UHGV virus genome: UHGV-0175179
DNA from: a virus
Direction: 5' to 3' (one strand)
Length of the DNA: 29,565 nucleotides
Shown: in pieces, positions 2,393 through 7,660 of the stretch
Layout of the letters: every line of letters starts with the position of its first letter
Numbering within the stretch: the first letter of the stretch is position 1
Notes under the pieces: generated by a model
Database searches by the model: none
Seen by the model: only the letters and a program-made list of their open reading frames with translations
Told to the model about the DNA's origin: nothing
Made by a program: the position numbers and the translations under genes

Positions 2393-2782
2393 ATGTTGAT
2401 GGATAAGACAGGACCGCAGCCAGGCCGCCGCCAGTTCTTAGAGCAACGGGCGCGGCTGCAAGCCAGTTTGAACGCCTCACGCGTGAATGACACTGCAACC
2501 CGTTTTAACCGCCTGGATGATGCCTGCAAAAAGGTGATTTTCATCCTGGCAAACGATGCGTCCAGATACATAGCCGGAATGCCGAAACTGAGCGCCAAAC
2601 ATTTGGGTTGCACTTACGAAAATCTAACCGAAAAGGAGCAAACGTGCCTTTTGATGGGCATTAAGCGCCTTACCGAATTTGCAGCATCAATGCCGTGGGA
2701 ATTTGAGGACTACGCCGCGCCACGCGCTGAAATTCAGGCGATACGCGATAAACCACCCACGCCAGATAACGCAGTCAATTAA
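2393..2782 (+). CDS. Hypothetical early protein (~130 aa)
   Basis: ATG at 2393 with GGAGG 5 nt upstream (the track used a GTG at 2387). No recognisable motif. Confidence 0.45.
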   Translation: MLMDKTGPQPGRRQFLEQRARLQASLNASRVNDTATRFNRLDDACKKVIFILANDASRYIAGMPKLSAKHLGCTYENLTEKEQTCLLMGIKRLTEFAASMPWEFEDYAAPRAEIQAIRDKPPTPDNAVN

Positions 2783-2852
2783 CAACTAACTACTCACAAA
2801 AAAGAAACAGGCGCTAACGCGTCGGGCTTCTTGCACCCTGGAGAAAGTAAAA

Positions 2853-3836
2853 ATGATTCGATCTCTCGTTAAATGGCCCGGTGGTAAAGGCCGCGTTATG
2901 CCTGATTTGCTGCCGATTCTGCCGAAAGCCGATTGCCTGGTGGAACCGTTTGTCGGCGGTGCTTCTGTTTTCCTCAATACTGAATATCGCCGTTATATCC
3001 TGGGTGATATAAACCCAGATTTAATTAACCTGTATCGCCAGATAGCCCGCTGGCCTGATGTGGTGATCGACGCTGCTCGCCCGCTGTTTAAAGTGTACGG
3101 TGATAAAGACGGCTATAAGTGGATCCGCGACGATTTCAACGCTCGCGCCCATGACCTTCTTTCATCGCGCAATGTGTTTGAGGACGGACCGGACGCGGGC
3201 AAGATTCTTCGTGCAGCACAGTTTCTTTACCTGAACCGTCACGGATATAACGGCGTAGTGCGCTACAACCAACAGGGCGGATATAACGTTCCCTTTGGTA
3301 GACACAAAACCCCGCCTTACTTCCCGGAAGAACAGATCCGTTTATTCTCTGAAAAAGCTAACGACACGAAAGCTATTTTCGTGTGCTGCGATTTCCAGAG
3401 CACGTTAAAAATCACGATTGGTAGTGACGCGGTTATCTACTGCGATCCGCCATACCTGCCAACAAGCGAAACCGCTAATTTCACCCAATACCACACCGCC
3501 CCGTTTGGGATTAAAGAGCATCGCCAGTTAGCTGCCGCCCTGCTGGATATTAACCGCCTTACTGGTTCGCCGGTGATCCTGTCCAACAGCGACACCCCTG
3601 CTACCCGCGAGATTTATCACACTTTCAACTTCCAGGAAATCAGCGTTAACCGTTCTGTCAGCGCGAACGCCATTACCAGAGGGGTCGCCAGTGAAGTGAT
3701 TGGCGTCCTGAAAGTGTGCAGCGGCTGCGGTCGTGCCGATGGTGGCCGTTGTCCTGACTGCGGCCCGGTAATGGGTGACGCGACCTACAACGAAATGCTG
3801 GCATCGGCTGCGGCCAATGGCGTGGAGGCTTTTTAA
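2853..3836 (+). CDS. dam: DNA adenine methyltransferase, Dam family, with a C-terminal Cys4 zinc-ribbon extension
   Basis: KWPGGK and LVEPFVGGASVFLNTEYRRYILGDINPDLINLY are near-identical in pattern to E. coli Dam (KWAGGK, LVEPFVGAGSVFLNTDF..YILADINSDLISLY). DPPY catalytic motif present (IYCDPPYLPT). The C-terminal ~45 aa add CSGCGRADGGRCPDCG. GGAGA RBS 8 nt upstream. Confidence 0.9.
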   Translation: MIRSLVKWPGGKGRVMPDLLPILPKADCLVEPFVGGASVFLNTEYRRYILGDINPDLINLYRQIARWPDVVIDAARPLFKVYGDKDGYKWIRDDFNARAHDLLSSRNVFEDGPDAGKILRAAQFLYLNRHGYNGVVRYNQQGGYNVPFGRHKTPPYFPEEQIRLFSEKANDTKAIFVCCDFQSTLKITIGSDAVIYCDPPYLPTSETANFTQYHTAPFGIKEHRQLAAALLDINRLTGSPVILSNSDTPATREIYHTFNFQEISVNRSVSANAITRGVASEVIGVLKVCSGCGRADGGRCPDCGPVMGDATYNEMLASAAANGVEAF

Positions 3837-4036
3837 TGGCAACCCGTATCGATGCAACTCAATCCGAATTTACCCGCGGTGCGCTGGCTGCGCTTAACGA
3901 AGCTAAAACCATTGCGCTTGCCCATGCGACGTTAGCGGGCGTTCTGGCTGGGCCTGACGTGGCTAATACATTGCTGATTTCTTTCAATACGTTATTAGAC
4001 CCGCTAATCGAAAAGCATTCACAACGGGAGGGTTAA
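3836..4036 (+). CDS. Hypothetical small protein (66 aa), translationally coupled between the two methyltransferase genes
   Basis: ATG overlaps the dam stop (TAATG). Ala/Leu-rich, no motif recognised. Confidence 0.4.
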   Translation: MATRIDATQSEFTRGALAALNEAKTIALAHATLAGVLAGPDVANTLLISFNTLLDPLIEKHSQREG

Positions 4037-4038
4037 TC

Positions 4039-5049
4039 GTGGGTGCTTTGGCTTACTACAACGAAATCGATCCATATGCAGCACAGTGGCTGCGCAACCT
4101 CATTGATGCCGGGCATATTGCGCCAGGCATTGTTGATACCCGTTCAATTGAGGATGTAACCCCCAATGACCTTAAAGGCTTTACTCAATGTCACTTCTTT
4201 GCCGGGATCGGTGTGTGGTCATATGCCCTGCGTCTTGTGGGCTGGCCGGACGACAAACCGATCTGGACTGGATCCTGCCCATGCCAGCCTTTCAGCCCGG
4301 CAGGCAAAGCAACTGGGTTTGATGACGAGCGGCACTTATGGCCCGCCTTTCATTGGCTCATTGCTCAGTGCCGCCCTGTCGTTGTCGCTGGCGAGCAATC
4401 TGGAAGCGCTAACGCGAACGTCTGGCTCGACCTTGTACAAACTGACATGGAAAGCCTGGGCTATGCCTTCGGGGCGGTCGCGTTTCCGTCTGCGAGCGTC
4501 GGTGCGCCACACATCCGGGACAGAGCTTACTGGGTGGCCGACACCAACGGCGAGCGCATGGAAACACCCTGGAAATCAGGGGAGGCAGGGAGGCTTGAAT
4601 TTGCAAACGGCCACAGCATTAGCTGGGTGGCCGACACCAACAACACAGAGCAACAACCAAATCTCAGGAGTTGGAGCGGCTGCAGATCACCCGAAGCGCG
4701 GGACAACTTTGGGCGGGGCTGCTCAGCTGTCGGGGTGGCCGACACCAGCTTCAAGGGACGGCAAGGGGGGGTATCAGGGCGGGAGGATGCGCAACGGGAA
4801 GCTGTCGACGGACACGCTGGATGTGACGGCGCAAATTGCGGGACCGGTCCGGTTAACGGTTTCTGGCGATCTGCTGACTGGCTGTATTGCCGGGATGGAA
4901 ACTGGAGGCCAGTTAAACCCGGACTTAAGCCGCTGGTTGATGGGGTTACCGGACGAGTGGGAAAAATCCGCGCCTACGGAAACGCTATCAACGTTGAAGC
5001 TGCAACAGCGTTCATAAAGGCTTATATGATGGGGGCGTCAAATGTCTGA
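4039..5049 (+). CDS. DNA cytosine-5 methyltransferase, phage orphan Dcm-like (GTG start); reading frame integrity uncertain
   Basis: Motif I-like FAGIGVW, motif IV PCQPFSPAG, motif VIII-like APHIRDRAYWVA and motif X-like RAYGNAINVEAATAFIKAY in this frame. GGGAGG 7 nt upstream of the GTG. The stop overlaps the gpA start. Confidence 0.8.
   Translation: MGALAYYNEIDPYAAQWLRNLIDAGHIAPGIVDTRSIEDVTPNDLKGFTQCHFFAGIGVWSYALRLVGWPDDKPIWTGSCPCQPFSPAGKATGFDDERHLWPAFHWLIAQCRPVVVAGEQSGSANANVWLDLVQTDMESLGYAFGAVAFPSASVGAPHIRDRAYWVADTNGERMETPWKSGEAGRLEFANGHSISWVADTNNTEQQPNLRSWSGCRSPEARDNFGRGCSAVGVADTSFKGRQGGVSGREDAQREAVDGHAGCDGANCGTGPVNGFWRSADWLYCRDGNWRPVKPGLKPLVDGVTGRVGKIRAYGNAINVEAATAFIKAYMMGASNV
4531..4749 (+). 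repeat. Three direct copies of a ~15-bp motif GGGTGGCCGACACCA inside the Dcm-like gene
   Basis: Copies at 4531-4548, 4623-4641 and 4732-4749, read directly from the sequence. They encode WVADTN / WVADTN / GVADTS in the gene frame and GWPTP three times in the overlapping frame. Confidence 0.8.
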
Positions 5050-7660
5050 CACCGCCTTTGCATGGCCCTGGAACGCGCCGCGCCAAGCTGTTGGCCTGTA
5101 CACCTACGAACCGAAAAAGATCGCCCCGCTTGCCGGGGCGGTGGCGCATCATCCTGCCGTAAAAAAACACATCGATCACATCTTCAAACGCGCCGGTTAC
5201 AACCCCGACGACGTTCGAGACCGTGACGCGCTGATCCAGTCGCTGGACAGGTACGAACCGTGCGGCCTGCCACTGGCCGCCCAACAAAATATCATCCGGC
5301 AGGAAAGTGCAGCCGCCAAAGCTGCGGCGGCTGCCTGGGCCAATACGCCGGAAGGTGTCGAAGCGCGTTTGTTGTCTGAGCCGTTCTTCATCCGCGAAGT
5401 CTGGCGCAAAAAAATTGAATGGTTACGGGCCAACCGTGAAACCAGACACACCAATGATTTTCTTATGGGGACCGTGAAAAAATCATTGCTGCGTCTCGAT
5501 GTTGTGCGCACAAGGCAAGGTGTTTCGCCTGATATCACCGGCGAACTGGCCGCGTACTGGTTCGGGCGCTGGCAACGACTGGCTGATTTCACAAAGCGGG
5601 AAGCACTAAGCGCCGCTAATGAGATCGCCAGCCGCATGACTGAAATGCTGGGGACGGAATGCGAAGCCCTGGGACGGAATGTTTCCGACATGAACGTCGA
5701 AGAACTGGACTGGCTTTATTGCCACATGGGCCGCGAAATGCTGGCGCTTCGTATTGTGCCGCCTGCATGGTATGCGCCGTGGGAACGCGAGCGCATATGC
5801 ACGGCCATTTTGCGTATGGCTTCGCCTGACTGGTGGGGGCGCAAAATCTGGCGCCTGCGTTGTGACTGGCGCGAAAACCAGCTGCGTGCTGTTGGCGCGG
5901 TAAATAAAAAAGCGCATCCGTATATTAGCGCATCAAGCCTGATGGAATGGCAGGAACAGCGACGTAAAAACCGTAATTTCTTCAAAAGTCATGAACTGGT
6001 AGACGAAGACGGCAACGTTTCGTCGCTTGAGGACATGATTAACAAATCCACGTCTAACCCTGCAATTCGTCGTCATGAGCTTATGGCCCGTATGGCTGGT
6101 GTGGAGCTTGTCGCCCAGAGCCGTGGCGATGTTGGCATCTTCCTGACCATCACTTGCCCGTCGAAATATCACGGCAATATTGCGTCCGGCCACCATAACG
6201 CAAAATGGAACTACGACACGGTTGCACAGGCGCAACGCTATTTATGCCGCGTATGGAACCGGGCAACCGCCAAACTGAAACGCGAAGATTTGCGCCCTTA
6301 TGGCTTCCGCGTCGCCGAGCCGCATCACGATGGGACGCCACACTGGCACGCGTTGTTATTTATGCCAAAAGAGCAAGTCAAAGCCACGGTTGCGATACTT
6401 CGCGCCTACTTCATTGCGGAAGACCGCGACGAGCTGGGCCGCAACACCGGTGCTCGCTTCAAGTCCAAAAAAATGGACCCACGGAAAGGGTCAGCAACGG
6501 CATACATCGCCAAATACATTTCGAAGAATATCGACGGTCACGCGCTGGCCGGTGAACTGGACGACGAAAGCGGCAAGCCGCTGAATGAAACAGCCAAATA
6601 TGCAATGGCCTGGGCGTCACTTCACCGCATCCGCCAGTTTCAGCCCATCGGACAGCCGCCCATATCGGTTTACCGCGAGCTGCGCAAACTGAGCAATCAG
6701 ATCACGACCCGCCAGAAAATTGACAATACCTTCAAGCGCGGTGCGCCGTTGCTTGTGGATCCTGCAATGGATGCGGTTTGCGCCGCTGCCGATGTCGGGT
6801 GCTTTGCTACCTACATCATCCGCCAGGGTGGTGTTTTGATCCCGCGTGAAAACTATGTCGTCCGTCTGGCCTATCAGCCAGCTGATGAAATGAATGCTTA
6901 TTGTGAGATCCCCGAAAAGGTTTTCGGGGTCTGGTCGCCGCGTCTGGGTGATGCCTCCCGTATTTGCACCCGTCTGGTTAAGTGGAAAATCCGCGCCAAA
7001 TCCAAAGCTACCACCGAGGCCAAAAACGGCCCCGGTTTGGGGGGTGACCTTTTGCCGTCGCCAACCGGCGACGCTTGGAGTTCTGTCAATAACTCTACGG
7101 AAGCCGAAAAAATCACCGATTTTTCGCCTGATGTGGAGGGGATGACAGAAGAATCAGAAGAGGAAATCGTCGATTTTGAAAACATGGACCAACCGACGCG
7201 GCGCAAATTGATGCGGCGACTACGTGAAACACCATTCAAAAGGCAGCAAAACGGATCACCTTATGAGCCAGGCAGCGAATTAGATGTCGCCTGGCGTTCT
7301 GCCGTGGAAAAAACCGAGGCCAGATCGGCGGCAGAAAAGGCCAGACGGGGGGCGCTTGCTCCTGCGGTTGCCAGCCTGCTAGCAGATGCGGCGTTGTATT
7401 CGGTTGAGATTTCAGAGATTCAGGCCGTTTCGCTGTTAATGGGGAGTTGTCTGGAAATTGGCGGCAAAGTTTATCGGGCCAGTGCTGACGGCCAGTTGAT
7501 AACGCGTCAATTACCCGACGAGTCACGGACGGTGAATAAATTATGGGAACGTCTGCGGGATAACCACGGCATAGATGCCACGCGCCTGCGGTTCGATCCT
7601 GCGGGTGAATACGCAAAGATGTTAACGAAAGCAATTAATTGCGCTGACAAAAAGGGGTGA
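5042..7660 (+). CDS. A: Replication initiation endonuclease, P2 gpA family (HUH rolling-circle initiator)
   Basis: HUH motif HWHALLF and active-site tyrosine motif SATAYIAKYISKNIDG, typical of P2 A-type initiators. 872 aa. Position after the early genes matches P2. Confidence 0.9.
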   Translation: MSDTAFAWPWNAPRQAVGLYTYEPKKIAPLAGAVAHHPAVKKHIDHIFKRAGYNPDDVRDRDALIQSLDRYEPCGLPLAAQQNIIRQESAAAKAAAAAWANTPEGVEARLLSEPFFIREVWRKKIEWLRANRETRHTNDFLMGTVKKSLLRLDVVRTRQGVSPDITGELAAYWFGRWQRLADFTKREALSAANEIASRMTEMLGTECEALGRNVSDMNVEELDWLYCHMGREMLALRIVPPAWYAPWERERICTAILRMASPDWWGRKIWRLRCDWRENQLRAVGAVNKKAHPYISASSLMEWQEQRRKNRNFFKSHELVDEDGNVSSLEDMINKSTSNPAIRRHELMARMAGVELVAQSRGDVGIFLTITCPSKYHGNIASGHHNAKWNYDTVAQAQRYLCRVWNRATAKLKREDLRPYGFRVAEPHHDGTPHWHALLFMPKEQVKATVAILRAYFIAEDRDELGRNTGARFKSKKMDPRKGSATAYIAKYISKNIDGHALAGELDDESGKPLNETAKYAMAWASLHRIRQFQPIGQPPISVYRELRKLSNQITTRQKIDNTFKRGAPLLVDPAMDAVCAAADVGCFATYIIRQGGVLIPRENYVVRLAYQPADEMNAYCEIPEKVFGVWSPRLGDASRICTRLVKWKIRAKSKATTEAKNGPGLGGDLLPSPTGDAWSSVNNSTEAEKITDFSPDVEGMTEESEEEIVDFENMDQPTRRKLMRRLRETPFKRQQNGSPYEPGSELDVAWRSAVEKTEARSAAEKARRGALAPAVASLLADAALYSVEISEIQAVSLLMGSCLEIGGKVYRASADGQLITRQLPDESRTVNKLWERLRDNHGIDATRLRFDPAGEYAKMLTKAINCADKKG

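Follow-up and report, generated by a model that had tools for sequence, protein, structure and literature searches.

The 29,565-nucleotide virus genome UHGV-0175179, analysed here over its whole length (the window), is an approximately complete genome of a P2-like Salmonella phage (Peduoviridae, genus Irrigatiovirus). Its early region encodes, in order, an integrase, a repressor, cox, two small genes, a Dam-family DNA adenine methyltransferase, an open reading frame (ORF) of 66 codons, a C5-cytosine methyltransferase and the gpA replication endonuclease. Features of the window are given by their coordinates and all lie on the plus strand. The Dam gene occupies positions 2853..3836 as a single open frame of 327 codons followed by TAA, and shares 97.7% nucleotide identity with the annotated Dam genes of the Salmonella phages SI7, SW5 and SW3. 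Our analysis concerns its C-terminal tail (residues 288-327, VCSGCGRADGGRCPDCGPVMGDATYNEMLASAAANGVEAF; 3714..3833), which runs past the end of the Dam core alignment in frame and with no stop. We find that this tail carries a translated, acidic Cys4 module that is under purifying selection, portable between proteins and dispensable for the Dam fold, and that recurs in RecE-family exonucleases and small phage proteins. We tentatively propose, at a confidence somewhat short of probable, that the tail is an autonomous metal-binding, protein-docking module placed on an ordinary Dam and common to early phage DNA enzymes.

The Dam core

Residues 8-268 match the D12 N6-adenine methyltransferase family of Pfam (PF02086; expectation value (E) of 4e-58, 197 bits against a cut-off of 22), and the protein passes the NCBIfam "dam" subfamily model TIGR00571 with 256 bits (cut-off 114.85). 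The NCBIfam equivalog of the host dam gene, NF008152, is not reached (258 bits against a cut-off of 441), which places the enzyme among prophage-clade Dam proteins rather than host chromosomal ones. The catalytic core spans residues 3-287 (2859..3713), aligned by phmmer against the PDB with residues 5-269 of the 278 residues of Escherichia coli Dam. The FxGxG motif EPFVGGA (31-37) and the DPPY motif (198-201) are invariant across 71 homologues. Residues K9, Y119, N120, R124 and P134 of E. coli Dam, which we take to be its GATC-contact residues on the basis of the 2g1p structure, align to K7, Y132, N133, R137 and P147 of the phage enzyme, positions that vary little or not at all within the clade; L122 is replaced by Val. 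An AlphaFold2 model of the full protein, built from the alignment of the 71 homologues, has a predicted local distance difference test (pLDDT) score of 83.7 and superposes in Foldseek onto E. coli Dam 4rtj with an E of 3e-27, a template modelling score (target) of 0.92 and a root-mean-square deviation of 2.5 Å.

By sequence and fold criteria, the protein is thus a member of the Dam family lying outside the host equivalog. Because domain models, motifs, contact residues and fold point the same way and GATC is not avoided in the genome, the core is an ordinary Dam-type enzyme, very probably specific for GATC. The whole window contains 126 GATC sites where 95 ± 9 would be expected, a mild excess that none of 100 dinucleotide-preserving shuffles reached.

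The appended Cys4 tail

The 40-residue tail starts after the last core strand, EVIGVL (281-286), whereas E. coli Dam continues for 9 residues past the equivalent point. It opens with a pair of Cys4 knuckles, CxxCG-x6-CPDC (3717..3761), formed by Cys289 (nucleotides 3717-3719), Cys292 (3726-3728), Cys300 (3750-3752) and Cys303 (3759-3761). A conserved GDATYNEM segment follows (residues 308-315; 3774..3797), at which a helix predicted over residues 309-321 begins, and the chain ends with the tip VEAF-COOH (3822..3833), the codon of Phe327 (3831-3833) being followed directly by TAA. The tail matches every position of the module signature C-x2-C-G-x2-G-G-G-x-C-P-D-C-G-[PA]-x-x-G-x-x-T-Y except D296. 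Codon 296 (3738-3740) encodes Asp here, where over 90% of homologues have the Gly that opens the GGG loop; SW5 has Gly too.

A preliminary description of this DNA had proposed that the enzyme is about 50 residues longer than E. coli Dam and carries an appended Cys4 tail; the string that it quoted, CSGCGRADGGRCPDCGPV, is present. An in-frame tail (288-327) does follow an E. coli Dam-like core. It is not a separate small ORF, as it shares the frame of the core, is preceded by no stop and shows synonymous changes relative to SW5. Nor does it belong to host chromosomal Dam: E. coli Dam has no such tail, and the score of the phage protein against the host equivalog is well below the cut-off. The figure of 50 residues is right as a total (327 against 278), of which some 20 residues are an internal insertion and some 31, net, lie at the C-terminus. 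The insertion is clade-specific (residues ~97-116; 3141..3200), is left unaligned against E. coli Dam by phmmer, varies among homologues and has a pLDDT of 54 over residues 101-110.

The downstream 66-codon ORF (3836..4036), which has no family match, starts on the Dam stop codon, its ATG overlapping it as TAATG. The Dam tail therefore ends at a genuine gene boundary, since this ORF lies apart from the tail. The ORF measures 201 nucleotides here and 228 in its SW5 counterpart.

Tails among Dam homologues

The 120 best Dam homologues are all annotated simply as Dam and come from P2-like prophages of many Enterobacterales genera. A tail of at least 25 residues is present in 111 of them, 87 of which contain a CxxC-x5-9-CxxC pattern; orthologues without a tail, 277-283 residues long, also occur. 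The closest cores (94% identical, P0004-P0009) bear a quite different tail with 10 cysteines that ends in ...CEPSDNPETW. Conversely, a Dam whose core is about 42% identical carries the same tail (27/36 identity) attached through an extra 10-residue linker, with gpA as the very next gene. Such swaps between near-identical cores, and the recurrence of one tail on a distant core, imply that tails and Dam cores have separate histories. The junction falls just past the EVIGVL strand, and these sequence comparisons mark the 3' end of the Dam gene as a hot spot of module exchange.

Several other tail types were seen in the course of this comparison. The alternative tails carried by near-identical cores (P0004-P0009, P0025/26 and P0010/17/43) also include one that reads ...GIVEGCPAGGCGHC...HERFVDEDAF, another class ends in ...YWESEENPIPL, and some tails are Cys-free with a [FW]xG[FVL]D[PL]A motif (...LFMGFDPAVSGADYSVVSYGK).

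We also considered whether the tail might occur elsewhere as a split gene, and rejected the idea: no ORF with the Zn module follows the tail-less Dam of an Erwinia P2-like prophage. Directly upstream of the tail-less Dam (3001-3843 of its own locus), the P2-like prophage of Erwinia tracheiphila encodes a free-standing Rv2179c-like DEDD 3'-5' exonuclease (2432-3004 of that locus). This DEDD exonuclease domain is found in lambdoid prophages fused behind a RecE N-terminal region and the module, so the same enzymes occur with and without it.

The module outside Dam

When the tail alone was searched against phage genomes, matches appeared inside proteins annotated as exodeoxyribonuclease VIII (RecE) at 55-71% identity. 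A 45-residue tail query, run exhaustively against 1.84 billion representative proteins, returned relatives with E down to 7.6e-10 and three kinds of carriers, namely Dam, RecE-family proteins of 683-991 residues with the module at about positions 490-560, and proteins of 65-190 residues with the module at their C-terminus. About 13 of the 33 matches in this search were long Cys/Gly-rich proteins with multi-stretch repeats and no CPDCG signature, which we treated as unrelated. A word-index search with a 47-residue tail or with the module profile returned short proteins and fragments only and was not used as a census.

In RecE-family carriers, the module forms an island between Q/N/E-rich and acidic/His-rich low-complexity linkers, and the nuclease domain is either PDDEXK (DUF3799) or the DEDD Rv2179c-like 3'-5' exonuclease. 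E. coli K-12 RecE itself contains the module, with Cys517, 520, 528 and 531 (residues ~515-546), just upstream of its nuclease domain (564-866). The region of RecE that holds it was described as "of unknown function" in a 2023 review, and the module is not mentioned in that structural review (PMC11611040). The product of ydaE, a "zinc-binding protein" encoded two genes upstream of recE in the Rac prophage of E. coli K-12 (6839-7009 of that locus), is unrelated in sequence to the module. One of the small carriers has Kil, GemA and Mor as neighbours in a Mu-like early region. Some short proteins, P0133 and P0163 among them, appear to be what deletions have left of Dam genes.

Profile libraries give a concordant picture. 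The Dam tail is matched by PHROG 20376 (exonuclease; E 4.8e-10) and by positions 526-556 of NF007259 (exonuclease VIII; E 4e-6), and Dam falls far short of a whole-protein match to the latter (25 bits against 1269), the shared part being the module only. No Pfam family covers the module, a scan of the tail to an E of 10 yielding sub-threshold generic zinc-finger matches only. NCBIfam and PHROGs thus hold the module only within exonuclease models. Searches of the literature on RecE or Dam zinc binding and on phage SSB-like tips found no description of it.

The module is present in at least 516 IMG/VR loci, and a DNA match to it exists in 914 of 5426 complete E. coli genomes. Taking one genome per species over 185,579 species, we found 27 module loci, nearly all in Enterobacterales, with Plesiomonas and Oceanisphaera in addition. 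The idea that the module might belong to plasmid leading regions was dropped, as only 22 of 72,556 plasmid records contain it. On these sequence distributions, the module is a portable part of temperate Enterobacterales phages that is autonomous across scaffolds.

Two statements of the preliminary description can be refined at this point. It had presented the tail as an extra to the canonical enzyme, and comparison of structures and sequences does find no Cys4 tail on E. coli Dam, T4 Dam or DpnM; however, the tail is not specific to this gene, being the rule in a large clade of P2-like prophage Dam proteins. Similarly, the alignment of homologues that it had called for confirms that the tail is not shared with host Dam but reveals sharing with those 87 of the 111 long-tailed homologues that have the CxxC-x5-9-CxxC pattern; the module is shared further with RecE and with small phage proteins.

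Conservation and selection

The four cysteines together with P301, D302 and G304 show little or no variation among the 71 aligned Dam homologues. Across Dam, RecE-family and small-protein carriers, the module conforms to the consensus [LE]-K-V-C-x-G-C-G-R-x-G-G-G-x-C-P-D-C-G-P-V-M-G-D-A-T-Y-x-E-M; in the alignment of these carriers, no variation is seen at C, C, C, P, D, C, G, G and T and hardly any at Y. Conservation therefore reaches past the metal ligands, to G308, T311 and Y312, and since these residues are not themselves ligands, their constraint fits a binding surface.

At the nucleotide level, the Dam gene differs from that of SW5 at 25 positions, 13 of which fall within the last 40 codons, 8 of these being synonymous; the codons of three of the four cysteines, and those of Pro305, Tyr312 and Phe327, carry synonymous changes. 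These 40 codons (3714-3836, against 4031-4153 in SW5) have diverged from SW5 about 8 times as much as the rest of the gene, an excess that shows exchange of the tail by recombination, with a mosaic boundary at the core/tail junction. For 31 distinct nucleotide versions of the module from Dam and exonuclease carriers, compared over 28 codons, the mean non-synonymous divergence (dN) was 0.099 and the mean synonymous divergence (dS) 0.727, for a ratio of 0.14. This ratio, with the synonymous changes at key codons, indicates that the tail is translated and constrained. The Dam tail module is under purifying selection and is not a product of chance.

Predicted fold, presumed metal binding and charge

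The tail had been described as a Cys4 zinc ribbon with the potential to add DNA or protein binding. Two CxxC knuckles are indeed present and conserved, with a 7-residue spacer, but no Pfam ribbon family reaches its threshold (the best, Zn_Ribbon_TF, scores 13.7 bits against a cut-off of 29), the AlphaFold2 confidence is modest, and the name zinc ribbon says more about the fold than these data support. In the models, the knuckles appear as isolated bridges without hairpins (pLDDT 56-78), and the helix over residues 309-321, predicted in both AlphaFold2 runs, is the sole regular element of the tail. A profile search of the PDB with the module gave nothing significant, the best match being 9qtr_i (E 0.003); chain i of 9qtr, a 68-residue "conserved protein" (CEACGRESDTKYCNDCGKVM), matches the knuckle only. 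A Cys4 knuckle with a helix is therefore the safer description. The tail presumably binds a metal, most simply zinc, with iron possible for CxxCG knuckles.

As for the added binding, the tail carries a net charge of -2 here and of -3.2 on average in homologues. Negative charge disfavours DNA as the ligand, and the sequence features would rather favour a role in protein binding or targeting.

The C-terminal tip

Among the 111 long-tailed Dam homologues, the last residue is Phe in 58 (52%), Leu in 15 and Trp in 8, these three together making up 73%; in the last 8 positions, acidic residues number about 1.9 and basic ones 0.26. From the 44 distinct decapeptides with a final Phe comes the consensus G-A-F-D-D-x-E-[AP]-F, which lines up with the SSB tip DFDDDIPF at F(-7), D(-6), D(-5), P(-2) and F(-1). 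The C-terminal peptide of SSB (SSB-Ct) is DDDIPF (PMC5872125).

The phage Dam has a C-terminal Phe327 with a free carboxylate, encoded by a codon that differs synonymously in SW5. Its own tip, AAANGVEAF (N322, G323, V324, E325, A326), keeps only E-A-F of the consensus; the Phe at -7, the Asp run and the Pro at -2 are all missing. RecE-family and small-protein carriers have no SSB-like tip, which makes the tip a feature of the Dam lineage. A clamp-binding motif of the QL[SD]LF type was considered and rejected: the xLEAF ends and the YQEMF segment are only loosely similar to it, the Gln being missing.

Nested ORF downstream of Dam

Farther downstream, a 283-codon ORF (4166-5017) is nested in the +1 frame of the 336-codon C5-cytosine methyltransferase gene (4039-5049). 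Its product contains GWPTP repeats and ends with LNPDLSRWLMGLPDEW. Phages of Burkholderia, Xanthomonas, Rhodobacter and Vibrio are among the 214 phage records in which the nested frame is conserved; it has PHROGs of its own and is annotated in phage K1ind3 as a nested "Mte8-like" coding sequence. Against BcepC6B, both frames align, with 54% and 46% identity, and over codons 150-230 the third-position wobble signature is that of the +1 frame (.68/.66/.37). By sequence, this seems to be either a true overprinted gene that has been conserved or a two-frame enzyme.

Proposed role of the module

That the module binds metal, that it docks and what kind of partner it docks to are inferred here from the properties of the sequences. 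In the mechanism that we tentatively favour, a Cys4 knuckle, a GDATYxEM helix and a hydrophobic tip would have been grafted after the last β-strand of Dam, and temperate Enterobacterales phages would attach the module to different DNA enzymes expressed early. The module would then serve as a docking handle through which its different carriers reach one shared partner, probably a factor of host replication or recombination, and would itself probably be neither DNA-binding nor catalytic. Protein docking is favoured because the module is portable, sits at chain ends or in linkers, keeps residues that are not ligands and is swapped between Dam cores without co-variation. A host factor is the probable partner because no replication proteins are common to P2-like, Rac/lambdoid and Mu-like phages, and one conserved in Enterobacterales would fit because the module is almost confined to that order and nearly absent from plasmids.

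Several observations weigh against this proposal. Metal binding is assumed from the CxxC pairs, and many Dam orthologues have extra cysteines, up to 7-10, with possibly different metal chemistry. The pLDDT of the tail is 78, 59, 70 and 66 in the full protein and 61.5 when it is modelled alone, values that are compatible with a fold dependent on metal or induced by binding, and also with contact with the Dam core. The knuckle starts 3 residues after the last core strand, which makes an intramolecular role possible, and the module sequences that were compared share descent, so that counts of them are not independent.

Other explanations make different use of the same features. The tail tip could mimic the C-terminus of SSB and plug into the pockets that receive the SSB tip, tethering Dam to forks or single-stranded DNA for early methylation of phage DNA. 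Many long Dam tails are acidic with a Phe, Leu or Trp end, they yield the AFDDxE[AP]F consensus, and one class ends in WESEENPIPL; we nevertheless regard this explanation as unlikely, as the phage Dam's own tip is a weak match limited to E-A-F and an acidic hydrophobic end would equally fit clamp-binding-like or degron motifs. Nor would SSB mimicry be the function of the Cys4 module itself, since RecE-family and small carriers have no such tip. A tail acting within or between copies of the enzyme, as an autoinhibitory plug, in dimerisation, for stability or as a degron setting Dam levels at the lytic/lysogenic switch, would agree with its short link to the core and with a knuckle pLDDT of 78 in the full protein against 56-66 alone; C-terminal hydrophobic ends can be protease tags. 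We find such a role rather improbable, given that the module also sits on unrelated scaffolds and at the ends of tiny proteins and that cores swap tails with no sign of co-variation, two points that speak against a contact specific to the core.

Many proteins bind nucleic acid through small Cys4 ribbons, the large carriers are all DNA enzymes and the knuckle is joined directly to the last core strand, so that a DNA-binding zinc ribbon adding affinity, processivity or a sequence or structure preference to Dam and RecE has to be weighed as well. It appears more improbable still: the tail is net acidic, the four thiolates with Zn2+ would be more negative yet, conservation falls on Gly, Pro, Asp, Thr and Tyr and not on Arg or Lys, the linkers of RecE-family carriers are acidic and of low complexity, and no DNA-binding zinc-ribbon family reaches threshold. 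Finally, the roughly 8-fold divergence from SW5 and the many alternative tails might suggest a functionless leftover of mosaic recombination. The low dN/dS, the invariant or nearly invariant cysteines with synonymous codon changes and about 70% identity across unrelated proteins speak against this to the point that it is hardly credible; the selection signature, as read from the sequences, effectively refutes it.

Returning to the docking handle, a more specific form of it is possible if rather doubtful: the module could be an undescribed docking domain borne by phages, one that recruits Dam, RecE, the DEDD exonuclease and the small effectors of P2-like, Rac/lambdoid and Mu-like phages to a single conserved Enterobacterales host hub. 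Candidates would be the SSB interactome or replisome, RecBCD, or Dam/SeqA/MutH. The SSB-tip mimic of the Dam lineage would then add replication-coupled methylation, and part of the N-terminal region of RecE would be explained.

The Dam proteins concerned are already public as "Dam family methyltransferase", while the 30-residue module, which has no Pfam family, is missed by annotation in the libraries and literature that were searched. The module links three kinds of temperate phage and occurs in RecE of E. coli K-12, a workhorse of recombineering whose first ~560 residues have been described as of unknown function (PMC11611040). If the docking handle is real, identifying its partner would reveal how phages direct a methylase and recombination nucleases to one location in the cell, and Cys517/520 would provide a mutational handle on the function of full-length RecE. 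If the module is only a structural knuckle, the result is a minor refinement of annotation.

Comparison with known systems

The phage Dam shares with E. coli Dam (2g1p, 4rtj), T4 Dam and DpnM the D12 alpha-group domain, the order of motifs, the fold and the GATC-contact residues. It differs from them in its ends: the solved enzymes stop about 9 residues past the core, whereas the phage Dam has its 40-residue tail and, within the core, the 20-residue insertion. RecE, or exonuclease VIII, of Rac-type prophages (NF007259) contains the same module at about 60-70% identity to the Dam tail, but there it is internal, flanked by low-complexity sequence and upstream of a PDDEXK or DEDD domain, and outside it the protein shows no relationship to Dam.

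Acidic tails ending in Phe are also known from T7 gp2.5 and gp4. Many Dam tails resemble the SSB tip through AFDDxE[AP]F-COOH or ...EENPIPL endings, whereas the tip of the phage Dam, NGVEAF, is a weak match and its carrier is a methylase rather than a protein that binds single-stranded DNA. NZF and RanBP2-type fingers and rubredoxin-type CxxCG knuckles are likewise Cys4 add-ons of some 30 residues with two CxxC(G) elements and a short loop; the module has no significant sequence match to them, and its GGG loop and GDATYxEM helix are specific to it. In DNMT1, a PCNA-binding motif targets the maintenance methylase to replication, and the likeness to the phage Dam, a methylase with a short docking element, is one of analogy only, with no homology.

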